A DNA stretch of 54,912 nt from an uncultured Thermotogae bacterium (GCA_964614065.1 CAZTJJ010000006.1:1-54912), one strand, 5' to 3'; shown: positions 188 to 53,240, numbered from the stretch's first letter. The notes: generated by a model not told the origin, from the sequence alone. Numbers and translations: made by a program.

Positions 188-2086
188 TTGAACGAGGACA
201 ATGGCTTCGAACCACAAGATTCACATAATGATAAAGACAATCGGGAAGACGATGAGAGGCAACAGTTCAACCTGCCCAACAACAATAATAACTTCCGCAA
301 TATAGCATTAATTATCGGGGCGGTTGTACTGTCCCTGATCCTTTTCCAAACATTGTTCAATACCCCTACTAACGAAACTGAGATAACGTATAGCCAATTC
401 CTACAGCAAGTTGAACAAGGAAGAATAGTGAAGATAACCATAAAAGGCGGATTGATACAGGGAACCTATGCCAGCGGTGGCAACTTTATTACTAGAGGCC
501 CTACAGATGCAACAAACTATCTGGCTCAATTGAAAGAACAGGGAGTGGAAATCAAGTTCGTAGAAGCTTCTGATGGAAACTGGTTCTTTTCACTGCTGGT
601 CTCTCTGTTACCAGTCCTCTTGATAATTGGATTATGGGTATTCATGATGCGAAGGATGCAAGGGAACAATGCACTGAATTTTGGCAAGAGCCAGGCTAAT
701 CTGGTAAACAAAGAATTTACGGACATATCCTTTGATGACTTTGCCGGGGTTGATGAAGTCAAGGAAGAAGTAAAGGAAATAGTTGAATACTTGCGCAATC
801 CCGAACGGTTTAAAAAATTGGGGGCTCAAGTACCAAAAGGGATGATCCTCGTAGGCCCACCGGGAACAGGAAAAACGCTGCTTTCCAAAGCAATTGCTGG
901 AGAAGCCGAAGTCCCTTTTTATCAAACAAGTGGATCAAACTTCGTCGAGATGTTTGTGGGAGTGGGTGCGTCCCGAGTCCGTAATATGTTCAAACAAGCC
1001 AAGGAAAACGCTCCCTCGATTATATTCATAGATGAAATAGACGCCATTGGCCGCAAGAGAGGCACGGGCCTGGGTGGAGGACATGACGAACGCGAACAAA
1101 CTTTGAACGAACTCCTTTCGGAGATGGACGGTTTTGAAGCCAACGAGGGTGTAATTATCCTCGCTGCAACAAACAGACCAGATGTCTTGGACCCCGCACT
1201 CCTCAGACCTGGAAGATTCGATCGTAAGATAACAGTTCCTGCACCCGACATAAAAGGCCGGGAGGAAATCCTAAAAGTCCATACAAAGAACAAAAAGGCC
1301 GCCGATGACGTAGACCTGTCAGTACTTGCCCGAAGGACCCCTGGTTTTGTGGGAGCGGATCTTGAAAACTTAGCCAACGAAGCCGCACTGTTAGCTGGAA
1401 GGCGGGGAAAGGAAGTTGTAGAGATGACCGATTTCGAAGAATCCATTGACAGGGTGCTTGCAGGGGTTCAAAGAAAAGGCATGGCAATTAGCGATGAAGA
1501 AAAGGAGAAAATCGCTTACCACGAGGGTGGGCACGCAATTATCGGTAAACTTTTACCTAACGCGGACCCAGTACACAAGATTTCGATAATTCCAAGAAGC
1601 AAAGGCGCCCTGGGATTTACTCTACAACTGCCATTAGAAGAGAAATTTTTGGTATCAAAATCTGAACTACTGGATAAGCTCACCACATTACTCGGCGGAA
1701 GAACCGCCGAGGAATTAATCTATAATGAAATCACCACCGGTGCTCAGGACGATTTCAAAAAGGCAACCGACATAGCAAAGCGCATGGTAATGCAGTATGG
1801 AATGAGCGATGAAGTTGGACCAATTAACCTGGGCAGAGAAAATGGTAACGTTTTCCTGGGAGAAGAAATAGTCAAGAGCAACGAACACTCGGAGGAAGTT
1901 TCCTCCTTAGTAGATAGAGAAATCCGCAACATGGTTGAAAGATGTCACAACAAAGCAAGGAAAATACTCGAGAACAACAGGCAGATATTAGATAATCTAA
2001 AGGAAGAATTATTAGAAAAAGAAGAATTAGAGGGAGACAAGCTTGACGAATTACTTGACCAGGCTGCCCTTCCAGCCAGTATATAA
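188..2086 (+). CDS. ftsH: ATP-dependent zinc metalloprotease FtsH
   Basis: AAA+ Walker [14 protein letters not shown] region, HEGGH zinc motif and an N-terminal TM segment. Probable TTG start with RBS AAGAGGTGA upstream. Confidence 0.95.
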
Positions 2087-2101
2087 CACAATCGATAACA
2101 T

Positions 2102-3289
2102 ATGACGACAAATATCACTATCCTTGGTTCCACGGGGTCTATCGGCACGCAAACTTTAGAAGTCATAGGAGATTTAAAATCAACCGGACAAGCCGAGTTT
2201 AACGTAAACGCGTTAACCTGTGGCCAGAATATTGAACTTCTCGCCCGGCAAATAGACGAGTTCCATCCCAAGGTAGTGGGAGTGAAGGACGAGAAGAAAA
2301 AGCGCGAAATCTCCAAACTTATCCCTAATTCAGTCAGAGTAGTATCCGGTCCCGGGGGACTGGTCGAAATAGCAAGCCTACCAGATACCCAGTTACTTGT
2401 GAACGCACTTGTGGGGTTTATCGGTCTAGAACCTACATTGACTGCCATAGAATCCGGCAAAAAGTTGTTACTTGCAAACAAAGAATCCCTGGTGGTTGGC
2501 GGGAAACTGGTAGACAGATCACTTGAAGAAAACCCTACAACGATCCTGCCTATAGACAGCGAGCACAATGCGATTTTTCAAGCCCTTCAAGCTGGAAAGC
2601 CAAAAGAAGTAACACGGCTTATTATTACCGCTTCCGGTGGTCCTTTCCGCGACACGCCGTTGGAAGAAATCGGCAGAGCCACCCCTGACCAGGCCCTTGA
2701 TCACCCTAACTGGAATATGGGACATAGAATCACGTGTGACTCCGCAACTATGGTAAACAAGGGGTTTGAGATTATCGAAGCTCATTGGTTGTTCGGCCTA
2801 GAGTATGAAAGAATAGACGCCGTCATTCATCCTCAATCTTTCGTGCATTCCCTGATAGAATACCAGGATGGATCCATTATAGCAGAGCTAGGGGAACCGG
2901 ACATGAAAGTTCCAATCCAGTATACTCTGACTTACCCCGATCGACTTGCAAATAACTATCATCGGACCAGCCTCATAGAGATCGCCGATCTTGAATTCCG
3001 TCAGCTAGATATAGAGAGGTACCCGGCATTTGAAGTGGTAGTTAGAGCGGGCAAACTGGGTGGCAACAGGCCAGCCGCAATTAATGGGGCCGACGAAGCA
3101 TTAATTGACCAATTTCTCCTAGAAAACATATCATTTGGGGACATTGCAACAGGGTTAAGATATGTATTAGATGAAGTAGAACCAATAGAAGACCCAACAC
3201 TTGAGGATTTAAGAAATACAGATAGTTGGGCTAGAAAAAAAGTGAAGTGTTTAGTGGCGGACAAAGCACTTGGTACCCAATCTAACTGA
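2102..3289 (+). CDS. dxr: 1-deoxy-D-xylulose 5-phosphate reductoisomerase
   Basis: N-terminal ILGSTGSIGTQTLEV NADPH-binding motif; length 395 aa is typical of Dxr. Confidence 0.95.
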   Translation: MTTNITILGSTGSIGTQTLEVIGDLKSTGQAEFNVNALTCGQNIELLARQIDEFHPKVVGVKDEKKKREISKLIPNSVRVVSGPGGLVEIASLPDTQLLVNALVGFIGLEPTLTAIESGKKLLLANKESLVVGGKLVDRSLEENPTTILPIDSEHNAIFQALQAGKPKEVTRLIITASGGPFRDTPLEEIGRATPDQALDHPNWNMGHRITCDSATMVNKGFEIIEAHWLFGLEYERIDAVIHPQSFVHSLIEYQDGSIIAELGEPDMKVPIQYTLTYPDRLANNYHRTSLIEIADLEFRQLDIERYPAFEVVVRAGKLGGNRPAAINGADEALIDQFLLENISFGDIATGLRYVLDEVEPIEDPTLEDLRNTDSWARKKVKCLVADKALGTQSN

Positions 3290-3292
3290 GGA

Positions 3293-3934
3293 GTGACAAT
3301 GGCGGAAAAATGTATCTACTGCGGCAATCGCCCTGGAACAAGAGAGTGTCCTGCTCTCGGCGGCCTAATCTGTAGCGTCTGTTGCGGCGAGCACCGGGGG
3401 GTCGAGATTAACTGTCCTCCGGATTGTCGGTACTTCCAGGAGGGAGAGAAATTCCAGCAAGAAAAACGCGCCGAACCATACCGTGATGCCTGGTTAAACA
3501 GAAATAGAGATCTATTTGAAGACGAAAACTACGACCTTCTTGAAACTTTGAGTATGATAGAAAAAGTTATTTACTTTGAGTATCGCAAGGACAATCTCCT
3601 AACAGATAAACAAATAATCAACGGCTTAATTGAACTAAAAAAACGCTTCAAACCAATTGAGATTCCAAGCAAGTCGCTAGATTTTACCGAGTTCGCCCAC
3701 GAGACTATCTCGCCATTAGTCGAAAAAGGTAGGATATCACCTGAGACCATCGTCAACGCTCTGGACAGATTTGAAGAGCTAGCCAATGAATTCTCCGACG
3801 GATCTCGAGGCCTGGTTCAGGGAGTGGTAGGAAGAGTAGAACAAGATTATGATGTTCCAAAGGAAGAAGGGCTCGAGGAAGCTCAAAACCGGGAATCTTT
3901 GATCATTACTCCGGATCAACTAAAAGATAACTAG
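3293..3934 (+). CDS. Hypothetical protein with an N-terminal 8-Cys zinc-ribbon-like domain
   Basis: C7, C10, C19, C27, C30, C31, C41 and C45 fall in the first 45 residues. Translationally coupled to dxr. The likely true start is the ATG at 3299, with RBS GAGGAG 7 nt upstream. Confidence 0.55.
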   Translation: MTMAEKCIYCGNRPGTRECPALGGLICSVCCGEHRGVEINCPPDCRYFQEGEKFQQEKRAEPYRDAWLNRNRDLFEDENYDLLETLSMIEKVIYFEYRKDNLLTDKQIINGLIELKKRFKPIEIPSKSLDFTEFAHETISPLVEKGRISPETIVNALDRFEELANEFSDGSRGLVQGVVGRVEQDYDVPKEEGLEEAQNRESLIITPDQLKDN

Positions 3935-3944
3935 TCAAGCCTTA

Positions 3945-5465
3945 TCAATCCCCCATTTGTACAAGCTCCTCTATAAGTGTATCTTTCAAACCTAGCACTA
4001 AACCTGCTGCAAGATAACTCAATAAACCCGCAAAAAGGGTAGTCAGGACAAACAAAAACTCACTTTGTAAAGGAAAGTAACCTTTGACCAAAGCCACTGT
4101 TAACCCCATAACTAAAACGGAACCAAAAACCTTGAAAGCAAAGGAGAAATCCGGTGAAAATCCTTTAAGCTTAGTTTTAACCTTGAAGGTCCACACTAAC
4201 AGTCCTCCATTAACTAAACCACTGACCCCTGTGGCCAGAGCAAGCCCGCCTACCTTCATGGGCCCAACAAGTAGTAAATCAAGCCCTACATTCACGCCTA
4301 CAGCAATAATTCCTATTATTACTGGTGTTTTTGTGTCCTCAATAGAATAAAAAGCTCTTGTAAATAGGGTTACAAAACTGTATCCCATCAGGCCCACTAA
4401 ATAAAGATGGAGAACATGGACAGTCCTTAAAGTATCAGAAGGCAGAAAATTCCTATGTTCAAATAGCAACTCGATTATAGGCTTGCCCAATAAGAACAAT
4501 CCCACCGTAGCAGGTACGATCACTAACAATGAGAACTTTACACCTCTGTTCAGCATCTCGGAAAAACCTTCACGGTTACCCTGAACCCACTTTTCGGACA
4601 AGCGGGGCAAAATCGCAGATGATATAGCAATGGCAAACAAACCAAGGGGTAGTTGAAATAACCTGTTAGCATACTGCAGCGCAGAAACCGATCCTGGTAT
4701 AAGATGTGAGGCCAACTTATTGTCGACCAAAACGTTCACTTGCATCGCAATCAAACCAATTACCACGGGAATCATCAATCTCAAAGCCCGTTTCATGCCG
4801 GGATGTAAGGGGAATAACTTCCACTGCCAGGCGAAACCATGTTTTTTCAAATAAGGCACTTGAAACAGCAACTGGCCGAGGCCACCGACAAGTACTCCAA
4901 CAGCTAGCCCGAAGATCGGTCGGGCAAAACAATTCCCAATCAGTAAAGCCCCTACAATGACACCAATATTAAAGAAGACGGGGGCAAAAGATGGAGCAAA
5001 AAACGATTTCCTGGATTTTAAAATCCCCATGACCAAAGCGGCTATACCAATAATACCAATAAATGGAAAGATAACTTGAGTTAATTCAATAGTTAACTTT
5101 TGCTGAGAGGGAGAAAAACCTGAGGCAAGAAACGGAATAAAATACGGTGCAAAAAAGATACCTATCGCTATAATAAATGGAAATGAAAAAAGGGCCAAGT
5201 TTAAGGCGTTCGACGCCATCCTTCTCGCTTCTTGCTTATTGGTTTGCAAATAGCCTGTGTAAACAGGAATAAACGATAAAGCAAGGGCACCTTCACCAAG
5301 TAAGCGTCGGAGGAAGTGGGGAATATAAAACGCAATTAAGTAGGCATCGTAGGCAGGCCCTGCACCGAACCTATCAGCAATCACTATGTCTCTGAACAAA
5401 CCAAATACTCGGGAAGCAGCAGTAGCGGCAGCGATAATTAAGACATCTCTGGCAAACCTTTTCAT
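3945..5465 (-). CDS. murJ: Lipid II flippase MurJ (MviN)
   Basis: N-terminus MKRFARDVLIIAAATAASRVFGLFRD is typical of MurJ; polytopic membrane protein of 506 aa. Confidence 0.9.
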   Translation of the reverse strand: MKRFARDVLIIAAATAASRVFGLFRDIVIADRFGAGPAYDAYLIAFYIPHFLRRLLGEGALALSFIPVYTGYLQTNKQEARRMASNALNLALFSFPFIIAIGIFFAPYFIPFLASGFSPSQQKLTIELTQVIFPFIGIIGIAALVMGILKSRKSFFAPSFAPVFFNIGVIVGALLIGNCFARPIFGLAVGVLVGGLGQLLFQVPYLKKHGFAWQWKLFPLHPGMKRALRLMIPVVIGLIAMQVNVLVDNKLASHLIPGSVSALQYANRLFQLPLGLFAIAISSAILPRLSEKWVQGNREGFSEMLNRGVKFSLLVIVPATVGLFLLGKPIIELLFEHRNFLPSDTLRTVHVLHLYLVGLMGYSFVTLFTRAFYSIEDTKTPVIIGIIAVGVNVGLDLLLVGPMKVGGLALATGVSGLVNGGLLVWTFKVKTKLKGFSPDFSFAFKVFGSVLVMGLTVALVKGYFPLQSEFLFVLTTLFAGLLSYLAAGLVLGLKDTLIEELVQMGD

Positions 5466-7171
5466 TAGGTTTGGGGGACCAGTACCAATCCTACTGGGAT
5501 ACGCCTATTTCCCCCGACTTTCTCGATGGATAGACCATCCCTGTAAGCCAAACCGGAAGAAGACCCTCCATCAAACGCAATAGCATTTTTGATATCAAGC
5601 CCCGACCTTTTCAGCAACTCAGGTAACTTTGGTAAAGAAATTCCAGCTCTAGAGATAACTATAAATAACAAATGACCTTGGGAAGTAGTCGCTAAAACAG
5701 TACGACTGGCCTTAGAAGTCACCAAACCGTCGGTCACGGTAAAGTTTTCCAAATTTAAATCCAGTATAGTTCTACCATCTTGTATTAGCAATGGTCCAGC
5801 GCTAACTGCTCCCCAGAGTAAGGGTACGTAGGGTTCCATCTCCCAATCAAATTCTGCTTCGTCACCTTCGCTAATACCGAATAATTTCGTCCGTTCTCTC
5901 CCCACACCAACTATTACAATCTGATCCCTACCAACGGAGTCCGGTGGCCGAATGGATCTAGAAACCACTCTTCCACCCTGCAATACCACCGAAATCACAG
6001 AACGTCCAGACACTCGAATAGACTTCCCATAGTGATGGGAATAGGCAACCAAATCATGTTCACTTAGCGGTCTATTAAAACCCTGAATTGGGATATTCGT
6101 GGCCTGAATTCTTAAAAACAAATCCACGTCTGGCCTGAAGAATTTTAGTCTACCAAAATAGTCGATGGCAATTGCCGCCCTATTTCCCCAATCACGAGAA
6201 AGCAATTCCCCGTTCTTAACTACTAGACCGATGGGTGTAAGGGAAGCGGGATCAAAGAAATTGGCGTTCAAGCCGGCAACACCTAAATTTCTGCTCACTA
6301 ATTTAGTTAACGTGTCTCGATACCCAACCTTATCGTTTGCAAGAACCGGCGTTAAACGGTAAGCATCCTGCCACTCGGTTATCTCCAGATAATGAATCGT
6401 ATGCCGTTGACCGTCTAGCCACTTCACCATGGTATTAAACGAAAAATTGACGGCCTGAGTAGGCTTTCCCTCAAGAGAGCCGACTTTTCCCTGATCAGAA
6501 AGAAAATCCAATAGAAACTGAAATCCAGACTCTCCTCGTTCAGTGACTACCCTGGTCCTTACATCGTCTCTGAGATCCAATTGAAGTATCAACTGATCTG
6601 GGCCCACGGAAGTCAACTCTACCTCGCTGAAATACGCTCCATCATCCTCAAGAGAATCGGCAAAGCTCCTAGCGTCAATTACGTTGTAAAATCTTATGGA
6701 CAAATCAAATTCATCTGACTGAGTCCGTGTAAAAGACGTAAATTGATCAAAGTTAAGTGACAATGAATCAGCACTCAAGGAGAGCCGGAGGAGCTGGCTT
6801 GGAGGAACCCGTATGTCCACGGATCCGTTGCTCCGGATTACCTTTCCCTCCAAGTTGCGAATCAGATCATGCAAATTGACGAAAACCTGATTGTCAACCT
6901 GTAAAAGCTCATCTTTAGGTAGGTAGAATGACTCTGTCTTGCCCCACTCTACGACGTATCCTCCTAATTTTCCAGGGTCAGCCATGGCCCCCACTACTCG
7001 GGAGGTTTCTTTTAGCGGAACTGCCAAGCCACCAGAAGTTTCAATTACATCTATATCTATCTCGTTTCCATTTAACAACACAACCGGGGGTCCGGCCGTA
7101 AACAAAAGGATAGCTACACCCGCAACAGCGAAAGCAGCTAAAACCAACGCTCTGGTCACATCAGAACTCAT
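5465..7171 (-). CDS. Phosphodiester glycosidase (NAGPA/DUF2233) family protein, membrane-anchored
   Basis: N-terminal signal anchor; C-terminal AFDGGSSSGL motif characteristic of the phosphodiester glycosidase domain. Confidence 0.7.
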   Translation of the reverse strand: MSSDVTRALVLAAFAVAGVAILLFTAGPPVVLLNGNEIDIDVIETSGGLAVPLKETSRVVGAMADPGKLGGYVVEWGKTESFYLPKDELLQVDNQVFVNLHDLIRNLEGKVIRSNGSVDIRVPPSQLLRLSLSADSLSLNFDQFTSFTRTQSDEFDLSIRFYNVIDARSFADSLEDDGAYFSEVELTSVGPDQLILQLDLRDDVRTRVVTERGESGFQFLLDFLSDQGKVGSLEGKPTQAVNFSFNTMVKWLDGQRHTIHYLEITEWQDAYRLTPVLANDKVGYRDTLTKLVSRNLGVAGLNANFFDPASLTPIGLVVKNGELLSRDWGNRAAIAIDYFGRLKFFRPDVDLFLRIQATNIPIQGFNRPLSEHDLVAYSHHYGKSIRVSGRSVISVVLQGGRVVSRSIRPPDSVGRDQIVIVGVGRERTKLFGISEGDEAEFDWEMEPYVPLLWGAVSAGPLLIQDGRTILDLNLENFTVTDGLVTSKASRTVLATTSQGHLLFIVISRAGISLPKLPELLKRSGLDIKNAIAFDGGSSSGLAYRDGLSIEKVGGNRRIPVGLVLVPQT

Positions 7172-7711: not shown

Positions 7712-8162
7712 TGCTTACACCTCTTTACGTATTAATTTTGAACCTAAAGATTTTCACAACTGTCAAAATTAACCTTGACCAGATAAAAACCGATCACCTA
7801 AGCAACCTGCCGGTACGTTGGCTGATCGAAAAGCTTAATTACTTAATCCGTGCGATTTACTCTCGCGCCTGTAATGTCTAAGTCCGAAGGCTAGGCTACT
7901 TCACCTACGTAACATCACTTATACACCTTACCAAGTGGGTTAAAACTAACTGGATAATCCAACTCCCATTCGCGACATCTACTCAGCACTCAACTCTGGC
8001 TTGCAAAATCTACCTACGGTTTACCTGACCGTTCTATCAACACAGTAGAACCGCTCAGATTAGATACTAATAGTACAGCTCAGGTACAATATGTTCAAGA
8101 TTGGCGAAGTAGGGAGAGAACCGGGTTGTAACTTTACACGGAGGAATAAACCTCCCATTGAC

Positions 8163-8168: not shown

Positions 8169-8351
8169 CCAGCATCCCTACCATACTAAATAAACTAAAC
8201 AATGACTGTGACGGTTGAAACAACCATCAGTTCAGCTGAAGATTAAACGTTTGAAATGCAACCACAAATAGATGGAAGTCAATTATCCCACCTCAAGGGG
8301 TGGAGCTTGTAGAAAAACATTGGAATAGAAGGCTGAATTTGAAAAAAGGGA

Positions 8352-8411
8352 ATTGACCCAGCCGATTCATCCCCAGGGCAAGCCCTGGGGGTTCTCAGCT
8401 ATTATTGGTAA
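8352..8411 (+). repeat. Intergenic modular element, copy A: ATTGACCCAGC, then 8-bp GC hairpin CCCCAGGG-CAAG-CCCTGGGG, then GTTCTCAGCTATTATTGGTAA
   Basis: The hairpin at 8371-8390 and the flanking module resemble the copies at 24439, 35421, 42355 and 53191. Oriented toward folP. Confidence 0.5.
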
Positions 8412-24423: not shown

Positions 24424-24438
24424 TTTGCTCCTTAGAAA

Positions 24439-24470
24439 GTCAAGAACCCCGCCCCAAGTGACGGGGCTTG
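24439..24470 (+). repeat. Intergenic modular element, copy B (hairpin module only): AGTCAAGAACCCCGCCCCAAGTGACGGGGCTTG
   Basis: Reverse complement matches the hairpin module of the copies at 42497 and 53205. Lies 16 nt after the lrp stop, oriented with lrp and crp. Confidence 0.5.
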
Positions 24471-24532
24471 AAAAAGACACATGAACAACAGAACCTTTAG
24501 GTTAATAACCGGAAATTGATCCAGGAGTAGTT

Positions 24533-35420: not shown

Positions 35421-35530
35421 CTACCAAAATTAGCCGAGAGTGCTGGGTCAATCTTTCGTTTTTCAAACCCGAGGTTATTTTTACCATTGTCTCTTTATAT
35501 GCCCCACCCGGTGGGCTGGGTTCTTGAACT
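35421..35530 (-). repeat. Intergenic modular element, copy C: hairpin module, ~48-nt variable region, ATTGACCCAGC, then CTCTCGGCTAATTTTGGTAG (read on minus strand)
   Basis: Lies between the rpsT stop (35536) and the secF start (35389). Shares both the hairpin+TTCTTGA(A)CT module and the CTCGGC-A-TTTTGGTA module with the other copies. Confidence 0.5.
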
Positions 35531-35943: not shown

Positions 35944-37383
35944 TTAAAAAGATCCCAAAAATTCGAGCAAGAAGTTCCAGAAGTTCTCGACAGTCGCTAT
36001 TTTCACGCATTCATCAGGCGAATGCGGAGATTCAATAGTTGGCCCCATTGCAATCATGTCTAAGCCTTCGACCTTTTTTCCTATCACTCCAGTTTCCAAC
36101 CCGCCGTGGGTAGATTTTATCTCAGGTTCACGCCCATACACGCACTCAAACGCATCCTTCGCGTCAGCCAACAGGCGAGAACTGAAATCGGGACTCCACG
36201 CTGGATAAGGCTCATTTTTATCCACCCCAGCACGGTAACAACCCGCAATTATCTCAATTCTACCTCTAACGTCTTCTAATTGCGATTCCAAGCTACTTCT
36301 AGTACTTATAAGGAATTCCAGCGAATTACTGCTTTGTCGAATCGAAGCTAAATTTGTTGAAGTCTCCACTAATGAGGACAACTCCTGGTCGTAACGAATA
36401 ACGCCATTTGGCAATGATCTCAGCAAATCGATAACGTTGCAAGTCGTTCCCTCACTCATCACATTCCCTGAGTTACTGTGAATGGACTCCACAAGCGATA
36501 AATCTAGCTTTTTTTCAGAGTTGCGATACTCTTCCAGAAAAATCGACCTGTACTGTTCAACTATACCCTGATACCCCTCACGAGCCTCAGATGTAGAAAA
36601 AACAGCTGAAGCCTCCCGAGGGATAGCATTATGCTTACCTCCACCTTCGATCTCCACCAGGTTTAAGCCCGGACCTTCTTTCATCTTCTTGAGAACCCTA
36701 GCCAATAACTTCAACGCGTTGGCCCGACCCTCGTCGATATCCTCCCCGGAATGACCGCCGGTCAAACCAGCAACCGATAGCTCCAAGAGGTCACCCTCTT
36801 TTGCCTCACTCCCGCTGAAATCTAGCTGCAGGTTAATGGTTGTAGTTCCGCCACCCGCACAACCAACGGTGAATGTGCCAAACTCTTCACTGTCTAAATT
36901 TATTAACCGATCACTCCTCACTAAATCAGGATCCAACCCGCTAGCCCCCACCAGTCCTGTTTCCTCGTTCACCGTAAACAAAAAATCTAGAGGCCCAGAG
37001 TCGAACTCCCCCCCAGCCAGGGCTAATGCAATAGCCATACCAATCCCGTTATCAGCACCAAGCGTCGTTCCGTTTGCAGTAACCCACCCGTCATCCACGA
37101 CTAACTCTATGGAATCTTTACTGAAATCATGCTCTGCGGTTGAATCTTTCTCGCAGACCATATCCATATGCGACTGAAGGACAGCCAGGGGCTCGTCAGC
37201 ACCCCAACTCTCGACTTGGCTCAACAGAACATTCCCCACGCCGTCAACGCGGGAAGACAAATTATGACGATCCGCCACGCTCAATAAGTACTCTCTGATC
37301 TTCTCCTCATGGCCGGAACAGCGGGGAATAGCGCTAATTTCTTCAAAATAATTCCAGACCTCATTGGGCTTTAGATTTAACAT
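35944..37383 (-). CDS. pepD: Aminoacyl-histidine dipeptidase PepD (M20C family)
   Basis: N-terminal …VWNYFEEISAIPRCSGHEEKIREYL… and HMDMV metal-binding motif; 479 aa. Confidence 0.85.
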   Translation of the reverse strand: MLNLKPNEVWNYFEEISAIPRCSGHEEKIREYLLSVADRHNLSSRVDGVGNVLLSQVESWGADEPLAVLQSHMDMVCEKDSTAEHDFSKDSIELVVDDGWVTANGTTLGADNGIGMAIALALAGGEFDSGPLDFLFTVNEETGLVGASGLDPDLVRSDRLINLDSEEFGTFTVGCAGGGTTTINLQLDFSGSEAKEGDLLELSVAGLTGGHSGEDIDEGRANALKLLARVLKKMKEGPGLNLVEIEGGGKHNAIPREASAVFSTSEAREGYQGIVEQYRSIFLEEYRNSEKKLDLSLVESIHSNSGNVMSEGTTCNVIDLLRSLPNGVIRYDQELSSLVETSTNLASIRQSSNSLEFLISTRSSLESQLEDVRGRIEIIAGCYRAGVDKNEPYPAWSPDFSSRLLADAKDAFECVYGREPEIKSTHGGLETGVIGKKVEGLDMIAMGPTIESPHSPDECVKIATVENFWNFLLEFLGSF

Positions 37384-37561
37384 AATATCTAATAATAAGA
37401 AATTATTCGGGCGTTACAATTAAGCTTCAACTCTTCAATAAGTTAATCATTGCTCCCAAATACCATCCCAAGCCTGTCCCAAATCTATGGTTGAGTTAGT
37501 AAGGTTATAAGGTTATGCTAACAATTGGACCAAATTGAGCCATATCACAGGGAGGTAAAAA

Positions 37562-37918
37562 ATGGACCAATATCACGAACCAATAGAAGATCTAGAATCA
37601 ACCGACAGAGATTTTGTTAGAGCACTAATGAGCCTTAAAGAAGAGGTCGAGGCAGTTAACTGGTATCAACAAAGAGTATCCGCCAGTGACGACGATGAAC
37701 TAAGTGAGATCCTTGCCCACAATAGAGATGAGGAAATAGAGCACGCGTGCATGGCAATTGAATGGCTCCGTCGCAACATGCCTGGCTGGGATGAAGAGTT
37801 GTCTACTTATCTATTCTCAGAAGCTCCGATAACACAAGTTGAAGAGCTGGAAGAAGAGGAAAACGCAACAGATGAAGGGCAAGAATCTCCCGACCTTGGC
37901 ATAGGCGGGTTGAGCTAA
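37562..37918 (+). CDS. Encapsulated ferritin-like protein (EncFtn/Flp cargo) with a C-terminal encapsulin-targeting peptide
   Basis: Ferritin-like ExxH site (DEEIEHACMAIEWL) and C-terminal …SPDLGIGGLS matching the family-1 cargo-loading peptide consensus. Confidence 0.8.
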   Translation: MDQYHEPIEDLESTDRDFVRALMSLKEEVEAVNWYQQRVSASDDDELSEILAHNRDEEIEHACMAIEWLRRNMPGWDEELSTYLFSEAPITQVEELEEEENATDEGQESPDLGIGGLS

Positions 37919-37948
37919 TCATCCCAAATCATTAAAGAGGTGAAAAAA

Positions 37949-38740
37949 ATGGATTATTTAAAACGATCGTTGGCTCCAATAACTGACGCAGGTTGGGACG
38001 AAATAGACGACCAAGCAAGAGAAGTATTAATCAGTCAACTGACAGGAAGGAAATTTGTCGACGTGACAGACCCCCAAGGTTGGTATTTCTCCGCTGTTTC
38101 AGAGGGCAGATTAGACATCAAAGAAGACGATCCAGGAAAAGTAAGATACGGCACCAGGAAAACCTCGCCACTCGTAGAAACAAGAACTTCCTTCAATTTA
38201 AACATCTGGGAACTTGACAACCTAAGCCGAGGTGCAAAGGATTTGGATCTTTCACCTCTAGAGGCTGCAGCCGAGAAAGCGGCTCAATTCGAGGAAGACG
38301 TTATTTACAAAGGACTTAAAGACTCAGAGATAAAAGGCTTAACTCAAGTCTCCGAAACCTCTTTCGATATACCTGAAGGTCCAGAAGGTATCGTTGAGGC
38401 AATATCAAAAGGTGTAATGACTTTGCAGGATACCTCCATCGAAGGTCCCTATTCTATGGTGGCAAATCGAGACCTATGGCAGAAGATCGCCAAGTCCTCG
38501 AAAGGTTACCCACTGAAAAGACATTTAGAAGATCTAATCGATGGATCAATCATTTACAACCCACACCTTGACAACGCCTTACTGTTATCAACAAGAGGCG
38601 GGGATTACGAGTTAATTCTGGGGCAGGATTTCTCAATTGGCTACGAAAACCACGACAGTACAGAAGTCAAGTTATTCCTCACAGAAAGTTTCAGCTTTAG
38701 AATTTTAGAACCCGGGGCGGTTGTTACCTTGACTCAATAA
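37949..38740 (+). CDS. Family 1 encapsulin nanocompartment shell protein (HK97-fold)
   Basis: Clear full-length similarity to the Thermotoga maritima encapsulin (LKRS.AP.T...W.EID..ARE, GRKFVDV, …ELDNL.RG…, GGD..LILGQD.SIGYE). The ATG at 37949 has RBS AAAGAGGTGA; the ORF track extends it to 37940. Confidence 0.9.
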   Translation: MDYLKRSLAPITDAGWDEIDDQAREVLISQLTGRKFVDVTDPQGWYFSAVSEGRLDIKEDDPGKVRYGTRKTSPLVETRTSFNLNIWELDNLSRGAKDLDLSPLEAAAEKAAQFEEDVIYKGLKDSEIKGLTQVSETSFDIPEGPEGIVEAISKGVMTLQDTSIEGPYSMVANRDLWQKIAKSSKGYPLKRHLEDLIDGSIIYNPHLDNALLLSTRGGDYELILGQDFSIGYENHDSTEVKLFLTESFSFRILEPGAVVTLTQ

Positions 38741-42269: not shown

Positions 42270-42354
42270 AATCTCACCTCAATGGTGTGATTCCCTTCCT
42301 TATGAACATCTCCTAGGAAAGAATTGTTAATTAAATAAATAGCTTATGCTTCAA

Positions 42355-42530
42355 CCAAAACTTGCCGAGGAAGCCCTCCAGCACCCAATTAGCCCTGCTC
42401 ATATGGTCTAGGAGCACATACAATATTAGTTCCGAATTGACTACTGGGTCTTATTGTTGTAAAAGAACAACGTCCGTGGTTAAATCTGTTTTTCTACAAG
42501 CCCCGTTCCTTGGGGCGGGGCTCTTGACTG
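42355..42530 (-). repeat. Intergenic modular element, copy D, split by a ~120-bp insertion flanked by a duplicated AAGCCC
   Basis: Left module ACCAAAACTTGCCGAGGAAGCCC (42355-42377). Right module CAAGCCCCGTTCCTTGGGGCGGGGCTCTTGACTG (42497-42530). The same two modules are contiguous at 53191-53240. Confidence 0.5.
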
Positions 42531-42579
42531 GATTTGTTCATCAATTGGATTCAGCTCAGTAAGTTAGACAAAACTCTTT

Positions 42580-53045: not shown

Positions 53046-53190
53046 CGATGAAAAACCTCCATTTCAAGTTATGTAACTCTCTGAATTGAGACTAACATCT
53101 AATACAGAAGTCAAGACAAATTTGCTAATAATGATTCTTCTCAATATTTTCATCCAACGAATCTTGTTAGCGAAAAAAACAAACTTTTTA

Positions 53191-53240
53191 CCAAAACTTG
53201 CCGAGAAAGCCCCGTCCCTTGGGGCGGGGTTCTTGACTCA
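53191..53240 (-). repeat. Intergenic modular element, copy E (archetype, contiguous): AGTCAAGAA-[GC hairpin CCCCGCCCCAAGGGACGGGGC]-TTTCTCGGCAAGTTTTGG (read on minus strand)
   Basis: Lies between the dprA stop (53248) and the ndk start (53045). Hairpin is 10 bp with a CTTG tetraloop. Both modules match the other four copies. Confidence 0.55.

Follow-up and report, generated by a model that had tools for sequence, protein, structure and literature searches.

The dprA-ndk spacer, at positions 53191 to 53240 of a 54,912-nt stretch of DNA from an uncultured Thermotogae bacterium (GCA_964614065.1 CAZTJJ010000006.1:1-54912, the whole of which is called the window here), carries a hairpin and a box that recur in other spacers of the same stretch, and the question is whether this repeat regulates the adjacent genes or is a relic of a mobile element. 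A first-pass annotation of the window had favoured a conserved regulatory function and had judged selfish spread less likely. Its description of a repeat in five spacers is sound: both motifs were found where they had been reported, far above chance, and the neighbour genes are those that it named, i.e. rplI/folP, lrp/crp, rpsT/secF, aroB/aroQ, and dprA/ndk. With up to three mismatches allowed, CTCGGCAAGTTTTGGTA occurs three times in the window (0.07 expected); AGTCAAGAACCCCGCCCC also occurs three times (0.02 expected), and ATTGACCCAGC has two exact matches, at 8352 and 35442. The ORFs flanking the copies are housekeeping genes, and the skew of the window tracks the gene strand. The interpretation has to be reversed: the repeat is a selfish non-autonomous element and not a regulatory cassette, and the window copies are decaying relics. 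The five copies are very probably gene-less, non-autonomous elements of the IS200/IS605 type, of the kind known as palindrome-associated transposable elements (PATEs); their family is specific to halophilic Candidatus Bipolaricaulota (Acetothermia) and derives from an IscB-carrying insertion sequence.

Anatomy of the element and its distribution

In full copies from related genomes of Candidatus Bipolaricaulota (Acetothermia) from salt lakes, a single sharply bounded element of ~260 nt has one module at each end. Module 1 consists of AGTCAAGAA, a GC hairpin and CTTG; module 2 consists of a hairpin and CTTTCTCGGCAAGTTTTG. On the gene strand the complete order is AGTCAAGAA, hairpin 1, CTTG, a linker of one of three types, ATTGACCCAGCACTCAATTGAGG, ~90 variable nt, CCTCAATTGAGTGCTGGAC, AAAACCAGCCGATTCA, hairpin 2, and CTTTCTCGGCAAGTTTTG. 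The two hairpins lie on the same strand in direct orientation, and the element ends are not inverted repeats. The hairpin stems keep their pairing through compensatory changes in the alignment of copies; the earlier description as one orientation-biased, structured, repeated element is right. The window copies align to the full element as deletion derivatives, so that the variable spacing between two modules, as first described, is internal deletion of a single ~260-nt unit.

The five copies differ in what they have kept. Copy A (8277-8407, plus strand, 131 nt, upstream of folP) begins with the right-end tail and hairpin at 8277-8319, detected in an inverted-repeat search, followed by the linker, GAATTGACCC at 8350-8359, AGCCGATTCA, the left-end hairpin at 8371-8390, and the degenerate tail GTTCTCAGCTATTATTG; the central palindrome is missing, and the flanking motif GTAA lies at 8408-8411. 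The hairpin formerly taken for module 1 of this copy (8371-8390) is thus the second, left-end one, and the true module 1, AGTCAATTAT-CCCACC..GGTGG-AGCTTGTAGAAAAACA at 8277-8319, had been missed. Copy B (24438-24527, plus strand, lrp-crp spacer) is a truncated 5' half without the left end, made up of the right end and a type I linker through ATTGA (nhmmer model positions 1-86, E=1.5e-11); it had been called hairpin-only, and the conserved linker carries it on to about 24527. Copy C (35425-35530, minus strand, 106 nt, rpsT-secF spacer) has the right end (AGTTCAAGAA plus hairpin), a type II linker, and then ATTGACCCAGCAC joined directly to TCTCGGCTAATTTTG, with neither central palindrome nor hairpin 2; the flanking motif CTAC is at 35421-35424 (plus strand). 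Copy D (42356-42529, minus strand, 174 nt, aroB-aroQ spacer; nhmmer E=1e-16) retains the right-end tail and hairpin, the type III linker CTTGTAGAAAAACAG, a shortened central palindrome, and the left-end tail, and lacks the left-end hairpin (hairpin 2).

Copy E (53192-53238, minus strand, dprA-ndk spacer) is the minimal form of 47 nt. It has one hairpin only and reads, on the gene strand, AGTCAAGAA (right-end tail), the hairpin CCCCGCCCCAAGGGACGGGG, CTTT (guide), and CTCGGCAAGTTTTG (left-end spacer). The target-adjacent motif TTAC (53188-53191, plus strand; GTAA on the gene strand) is flanking DNA directly 5' of the left end. Two elements of the regulatory proposal find another identity here: the box CTCGGCAAGTTTTG, taken as a promoter or operator, is the left-end spacer, which separates the guide tetranucleotide from the cleavage site, and the conserved TTCTTGACT, described as -35-like, is the 9-nt right-end tail bearing the cleavage site.

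Single-hairpin forms of 47-50 nt are found at unrelated loci (L009, L022, L059, L117, L135, L149, L157, L184, and window 53192-53238), with a hairpin of the right-end type in some and of the left-end type in others, which suggests repeated collapse between the two similar hairpins, like solo-LTR formation. Since such 47-nt forms do not fit as substrates of a two-hairpin transpososome, they would be collapses that followed insertion. Among full copies (e.g. L021, L044, L047, L066) the arms of the long central stem vary (CACTCAATTGAG, CAGTCAATCGAG, CACTCAAATGAG); within each copy they pair almost without mismatch and with few wobble pairs, and the stem is equally stable on the two strands. A ~350-nt insertion in a ~90% relative (L124 2000-2530, orthologous to window 37383-37562, where the window has none) contains a stem resembling the central palindrome (ACCAGCACTCAGATGAG...CTCATCTGAGTGCTG) alone, with neither element end, and the palindrome module may be independent of the element.

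An nhmmer model built from ten full copies recovered 82 unique copies, all of them in Bipolaricaulota-type DNA among the DNA searched. A module-2 pattern scan with one genome per species matched at least 114 stretches; among the matches listed, about 32 fall in a handful of salt-lake Candidatus Bipolaricaulota/Acetothermia assemblies and the remainder are single chance matches in unrelated taxa. The element is cut by a contig end at no fewer than 9 of these 32 loci (again among the matches listed), suggesting a high copy number; it explains assembly breaks, as many contigs end inside it. Homologues of DprA, encapsulin, and MnmE confirm that the host of the window belongs to the Bipolaricaulota/Acetothermia lineage. 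The element also occurs in several assemblies labelled 'uncultured Thermotogae' (loci L009, L013, L030, L035, L047, L059, L060, L074, and L116), which are probably mislabelled members of the same lineage, because they carry this Bipolaricaulota-specific family. Scans of viral contigs with lineage-specific end patterns found no family member, and the literature yielded nothing relevant on Bipolaricaulota or Acetothermia in combination with IS200, IS605, IscB, or TnpB. Annotators of such genomes should mask the repeats as mobile-element relics and not enter them as terminators, promoters, or small RNAs.

Empty sites and guide-directed targeting

Spread of the element is documented by precise absence from orthologous spacers. 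At copy E, a relative whose DprA is 90% identical (L121) misses exactly those 47 nt and reads ...GGACTCG/GTAGAAAG (slashes mark the junctions). From the dprA stop codon onwards L121 has TAA ATCGGACTCG/GTAGAAAG, and the window has TAA ATTGGATTG/AGTCAAG...TTTTG/GTAAAAAG; the empty site retains GTAG at the target position of copy E. In the more distant relatives L122 and L123 the dprA-ndk spacer measures 19 nt and 28 nt, respectively. At copy A, the relative L189 reads ...catcagacgt/GATAATATCTAAC versus ...aaatagatgga/131 nt/GTAATATCTAATAC in the window. In both comparisons the relative is ~90% identical at the protein level. Neither copy A nor copy E is accompanied by a target duplication, and comparison of occupied with empty sites places the final GTA of the second module 'TTTTGGTA' in the flank; the module was rightly recognised as a repeated box, and its last three bases are target DNA outside the element. 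Copy B is old: L189 has a shorter relic at the same place and L190 has none. The precise absence of copies A and E from a relative and the different decay of copy B in two lineages contradict the earlier judgement that selfish spread is less likely. Insertion differences of this kind make the copies usable as polymorphism markers between closely related populations.

Copy D offers no clean empty site, since the orthologous aroB and aroQ genes overlap by 4 nt (L124) or lie 8 nt apart (L126); the element accounts for 174 nt of the 310-nt aroB-aroQ spacer in the window. A twin of copy D, identical over at least 137 nt and set in other flanks, lies ~2 kb past the window end in the same species (L170/L136) and suggests recent copying. 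A joined-flank search of all DNA searched gave no further empty sites. The element leaves unaccounted for two stretches of unique DNA beside copy D, 42270-42355 and 42530-42579 (84 and 50 nt). Elsewhere in the window, in the rplI-folP spacer, ~210 nt of extra non-coding DNA (7850-8060) is missing from the ~90% relative L189; it has no ORF, no Rfam match, and no second copy in the DNA searched, and may be another small insertion.

Seen on the strand opposite the genes, every insertion lies 3' of one of the tetranucleotides TTAC, CTAC, and TCAC. Among the family copies, the flank after the left end has the consensus GT(A/G)(A/G) on the gene strand (YYAC on the top strand), and the 5' flank has no motif. 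Written on the top strand, the arrangement is TTAC/CAAAACTTGCCGAG-AAAG-hairpin ... long palindrome ... hairpin-TTCTTGACT/. The tetranucleotide before the left hairpin covaries with the flank. On the gene strand, guide and flank are paired as CTTT/GTAA in 17 copies, CACT/GTAG in 11, and CTTC/GTGA in 3, which correspond to guide/target pairs AAAG/TTAC, AGTG/CTAC, and GAAG/TCAC on the top strand. Of 46 copies, 32 have the flank that the guide rule predicts and 14 depart from it; shuffling gives a mean of 14.2, and none of 10,000 permutations reached 32. The pattern used in the genome scan fixed G-G-T-W only and left the covarying positions free. Two separate Watson-Crick covariations are thus seen across independent insertions. 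Both window copies C and E conform, in that the guide CACT of copy C pairs with its flank GTAG and the flank of copy E is that predicted from its guide CTTT.

The same arrangement is known from IS608 of Helicobacter pylori, the structural paradigm of single-strand transposition in the IS200/IS605 group. IS608 inserts seamlessly 3' of TTAC, as directed by the guide AAAG at the foot of its left hairpin, and its left cleavage site precedes the left hairpin by 19 nt, its right one following the right hairpin by 10 nt (PMC3201880). In the present family the principal target and guide are identical, insertion is equally seamless, and the corresponding distances are 18 nt on the left (CAAAACTTGCCGAGAAAG) and 9 nt on the right (TTCTTGACT). 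The pairing scheme also matches the solved guide-target contacts A+16:T-3 and A+17:T-4 of IS608 (PMC5934647). Unlike the present elements, IS608 bears tnpA and tnpB; its right cleavage site is TCAA with the guide GAAT, whereas the right end here reads ...CTTGACT and doubles on the other strand as the start of an IscB-type RNA. With three guide/target pairs in one lineage that follow the IS608 pairing rule, the family provides a natural case of target reprogramming in the IS200/IS605 group.

The active 'top' strand is the strand opposite the neighbouring genes, with a left end composed of the target motif, an 18-nt spacer ending in the 4-nt guide, and a hairpin, and a right end composed of a hairpin and a 9-nt tail. 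A Y1 HUH transposase (TnpA), encoded elsewhere, would bind both hairpins in single-stranded DNA and excise the top strand as a circle, which would then be pasted 3' of a tetranucleotide picked by base pairing with the guide, with nothing duplicated or lost. The window copies are decay products, shortened by internal deletions bounded by short repeats and, putatively, by collapse of the two similar hairpins into one. Regarding the strand on which the hairpins are selected, the strand opposite the genes gives the better fold of the right-end hairpin in ~14 of 22 copies; folding of the left-end hairpin and of the central palindrome is symmetric between the strands, and for that reason the asymmetry test does not separate DNA-level from RNA-level selection.

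No TnpA or IscB gene was found beside any copy, and none of the copies is followed directly by iscB or isrB (RRXRR with or without HNH). A tblastn search with IS608 TnpA, a query verified against PDB 2A6M, detected no TnpA in 1.4 Mb (~0.45 Mb of it lineage DNA), and a tblastn search with nine IscB proteins detected none in the ~0.45 Mb of lineage DNA. From these results we infer that the elements are mobilised in trans.

Homology of the ends to IscB elements and HEARO RNA

On the gene strand, the sequence of the right end matches HEARO, the scaffold of the IscB guide RNA, over its first 50-90 nt. In the 5' domain of HEARO, a GUCAA...UUGAC helix encloses two hairpins, CCCC/GGGG and CUUG-GAAA-CAAG, and CAG follows. 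Copies with the type I linker align at all invariant positions of this domain; those of type III are without UUGAC, one strand of helix P1. In place of the conserved 3' half of HEARO the copies have a near-perfect palindrome, the folding energy of which is symmetric between the strands. In E-value mode the full copies L021 and L044 score 18-19 bits against Rfam HEARO (RF02033), whose gathering threshold is 83; window copy B gives no match to the HEARO model.

Real IscB loci show the same ends. In viral contigs, a scan for GTCAA-N3-CCCC-N8-16-GGGGCTTG matched at 120 loci, and almost every one has the form GTCAAyTACCCC..TAAAG..GGGGCTTG...TTGAC. Among ten downstream ORFs at such loci, eight encode RRXRR plus HNH (IscB), one RRXRR only, and one TnpB. 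The Rfam HEARO model reaches 103-146 bits at the viral IscB loci, and its position 1 falls on GTCAA. The viral elements end past the iscB stop codon with a hairpin and then TTTCTCGCGCAAGACTG/ATGA, resembling CTTTCTCGGCAAGTTTTG/GTAA of the present family, and these ends obey the same guide-flank rule. Because both ends match IscB elements, module 1 is the right end and at the same time the omega-RNA start, and module 2 the left end, of an IscB-type insertion sequence; the right end preserves an RNA heritage in its surviving 50-90 nt. On one viral contig, L269 (IMGVR_UViG_2914811602_000004), a 7-kb stretch (262-6776) has three HEARO+IscB elements that all point the same way, with single genes between them and its own flank for each element.

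Among known systems the closest are PATEs, such as the relatives of ISGst1 and ISGst5 in Geobacillus stearothermophilus (bioRxiv 10.1101/2023.03.14.532601). Like these, the present elements lack coding capacity and keep both subterminal hairpins of the parent IS, have no inverted terminal repeats and no target duplication, insert beside a short target motif, carry part of a guide-RNA scaffold, and occur in many copies per genome, presumably moved in trans. They differ in their host, which belongs to an uncultured candidate phylum, in having a long near-perfect palindrome as interior where those have a full omega-RNA, in the coexistence of three target variants, TTAC, CTAC, and TCAC, with matching guides, and in that neither parent IS nor transposase was found in the 1.4 Mb searched. 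With IscB insertion sequences and HEARO they share the 5' motif GUCAA-N3-CCCC hairpin-GGGGCUUG-(GAAA)-CAGG ... [quoted passage not shown] The iscB ORF and the conserved 3' half of HEARO are absent from the present family, and their score of 18 bits falls short of the gathering threshold of 83. Pneumococcal BOX and enterobacterial BIME/REP sequences are similarly modular in appearance, intergenic, subject to frequent internal deletions, and co-transcribed with their neighbours; unlike the elements described here, those families are without a demonstrated guide-directed tetranucleotide target or IscB-homologous ends. The present copies extend the relics of IscB-type elements to the candidate phylum Bipolaricaulota, and the two ends provide a search handle for the transposase and for any compact IscB/IsrB nuclease in halophilic members.

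Orientation relative to genes and competing explanations

All five window copies follow the direction of their neighbours, as the first-pass annotation had noted, with the reservation that rplI, upstream of the folP copy at a distance of 565 nt, is divergent. The 'strict' orientation that had been claimed does not hold in the family. For those of the 82 copies that have a called gene no more than 300 nt away, 27 upstream genes share the orientation of the element and 9 oppose it (p=0.004); for downstream genes the split is 22 to 11 (p=0.08). The bias is thus real without being strict. As to replication, the IS200/IS605 family characteristically has its top strand on the lagging-strand template; the assemblies analysed here are fragmented metagenome assemblies, in which neither origin nor terminus is placed. 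Position is biased as well: 14 of the 27 co-oriented upstream genes stop 0-26 nt from the element. In the window, four copies start 7-50 nt past a stop codon, in agreement with the reported placement of the hairpin shortly after the upstream stop, from which the folP copy is excepted, having no co-directional upstream gene. The distance to downstream start codons ranges over the family from 10 to >500 nt. These biases are most likely retention effects: an insertion right past a stop codon would spare the control region of the next gene and would therefore be retained.

The same biases can be read differently. If the copies were working guide-RNA genes, read-through from the upstream gene would produce an omega-RNA that takes its 5' guide from the final 16-20 nt ahead of AGTCAAG, and an IscB or IsrB encoded elsewhere would cut emptied donor sites or other targets, so that RNA-guided homing would retain the elements alongside transposition. 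IscB elements are reported to favour upstream-gene orientation just as the 27:9 ratio here does, their guide lies outside the element, and gene-less PATEs are reported to often encode omega-RNAs, on which a nuclease from a separate IS would act in trans (bioRxiv 10.1101/2023.03.14.532601); the fit of the 5' 50-90 nt to the invariant positions of the HEARO consensus and to real IscB-linked HEAROs agrees with this. The score of 18 bits against a threshold of 83, the replacement of the 3' half of the scaffold by a palindrome, the loss of one P1 strand in type III copies, the complete loss of the interior in most window copies, and the negative IscB/IsrB search in ~0.45 Mb of lineage DNA all speak against it, and we regard it as rather unlikely. 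A broader version, in which the element strand is read through from the upstream gene and used as RNA, either as a minimal IscB/IsrB-like guide library or as exapted 3'-UTR or intra-operon structures, is likewise unlikely. Were it true, dispersed guides would be drawn from the 3' ends of housekeeping genes for a nuclease encoded elsewhere, and the enrichment past stop codons, the 27:9 bias, and the upkeep of a perfectly paired, sequence-variable central stem would be explained.

A cis-regulatory cassette kept by selection at gene boundaries, with the hairpin as terminator or stabiliser of the upstream transcript and the CTCGGCAAGTTTTGGTA box as a promoter, operator, or processing site for the downstream gene, would account for the co-orientation of all window copies, for the frequent placement just past stop codons in the window and in 14 of 27 family copies, for the compensatory changes that maintain the stems, and for the position of copy B, which adjoins the crp ribosome-binding site. 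It is nevertheless very unlikely. The element is missing from the same spacers in close relatives, 9 of 36 upstream and 11 of 33 downstream genes are in the opposite orientation, and start-codon distances vary from 10 to >500 nt; the box ends in target DNA, and the promoter model leaves the covariation of the flank with the internal tetranucleotide unexplained. On either strand of copies E and D there is no sigma-70-like promoter (-35/-10 with 16-18 nt spacing) and no hairpin followed by a T-tract, the latter confirming that the hairpins are not intrinsic terminators. The empty sites, the 27:9 orientation, and the lack of promoter and terminator matches together contradict the conserved regulatory function that had been favoured. 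Promoter readings of module 2, i.e. as a Bacteroidetes-type -7 motif (TAnnTTTG), as an extended -10 (TGGTA...), and as a sigma-54, sigma-32, or sigma-28 site, were rejected in view of empty consensus scans, strong Shine-Dalgarno sites, and the highly variable distance to start codons.

That the copies are REP/REPIN-type elements, i.e. short extragenic palindromes spread and kept by a domesticated RAYT (TnpA-REP) transposase, is an extremely remote prospect: they are GC-rich imperfect palindromes in intergenic DNA and in many copies, and REP hairpins are reportedly related to the end hairpins of IS200/IS605, Y1 HUH enzymes being said to bind both, but the unit is ~260 nt with two hairpins in direct orientation and not an inverted doublet of 20-40 nt, no conserved GTAG precedes the palindrome on its 5' side, both ends (the HEARO start included) are homologous to IscB-carrying IS elements, the asymmetric 18-nt/9-nt ends and guide-directed targeting are IS features, and no Y1 gene was seen in the 1.4 Mb searched. 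The REP-like protein-binding element listed among the original options is thus right as to the kinship of the hairpins and wrong as to the class.

The non-autonomous IS200/IS605-type element remains the reading that we adopt. With regard to other RNA or DNA features, the copies gave no Rfam match at gathering thresholds and nothing tRNA-like. Weak matches to CRISPR repeats and microRNAs in E-value mode were dismissed as palindrome artefacts, and an integron attC site and a group II intron were rejected by reasoning on size and context. Two further features of the window were recorded: the 3' part of a tRNA gene at 1-56, cut by the window start (Rfam tRNA 31.6 bits), and an encapsulin operon at 37562-38740, in which an EncFtn-like cargo gene is followed by a Linocin_M18 shell protein and which is conserved across Bipolaricaulota relatives.
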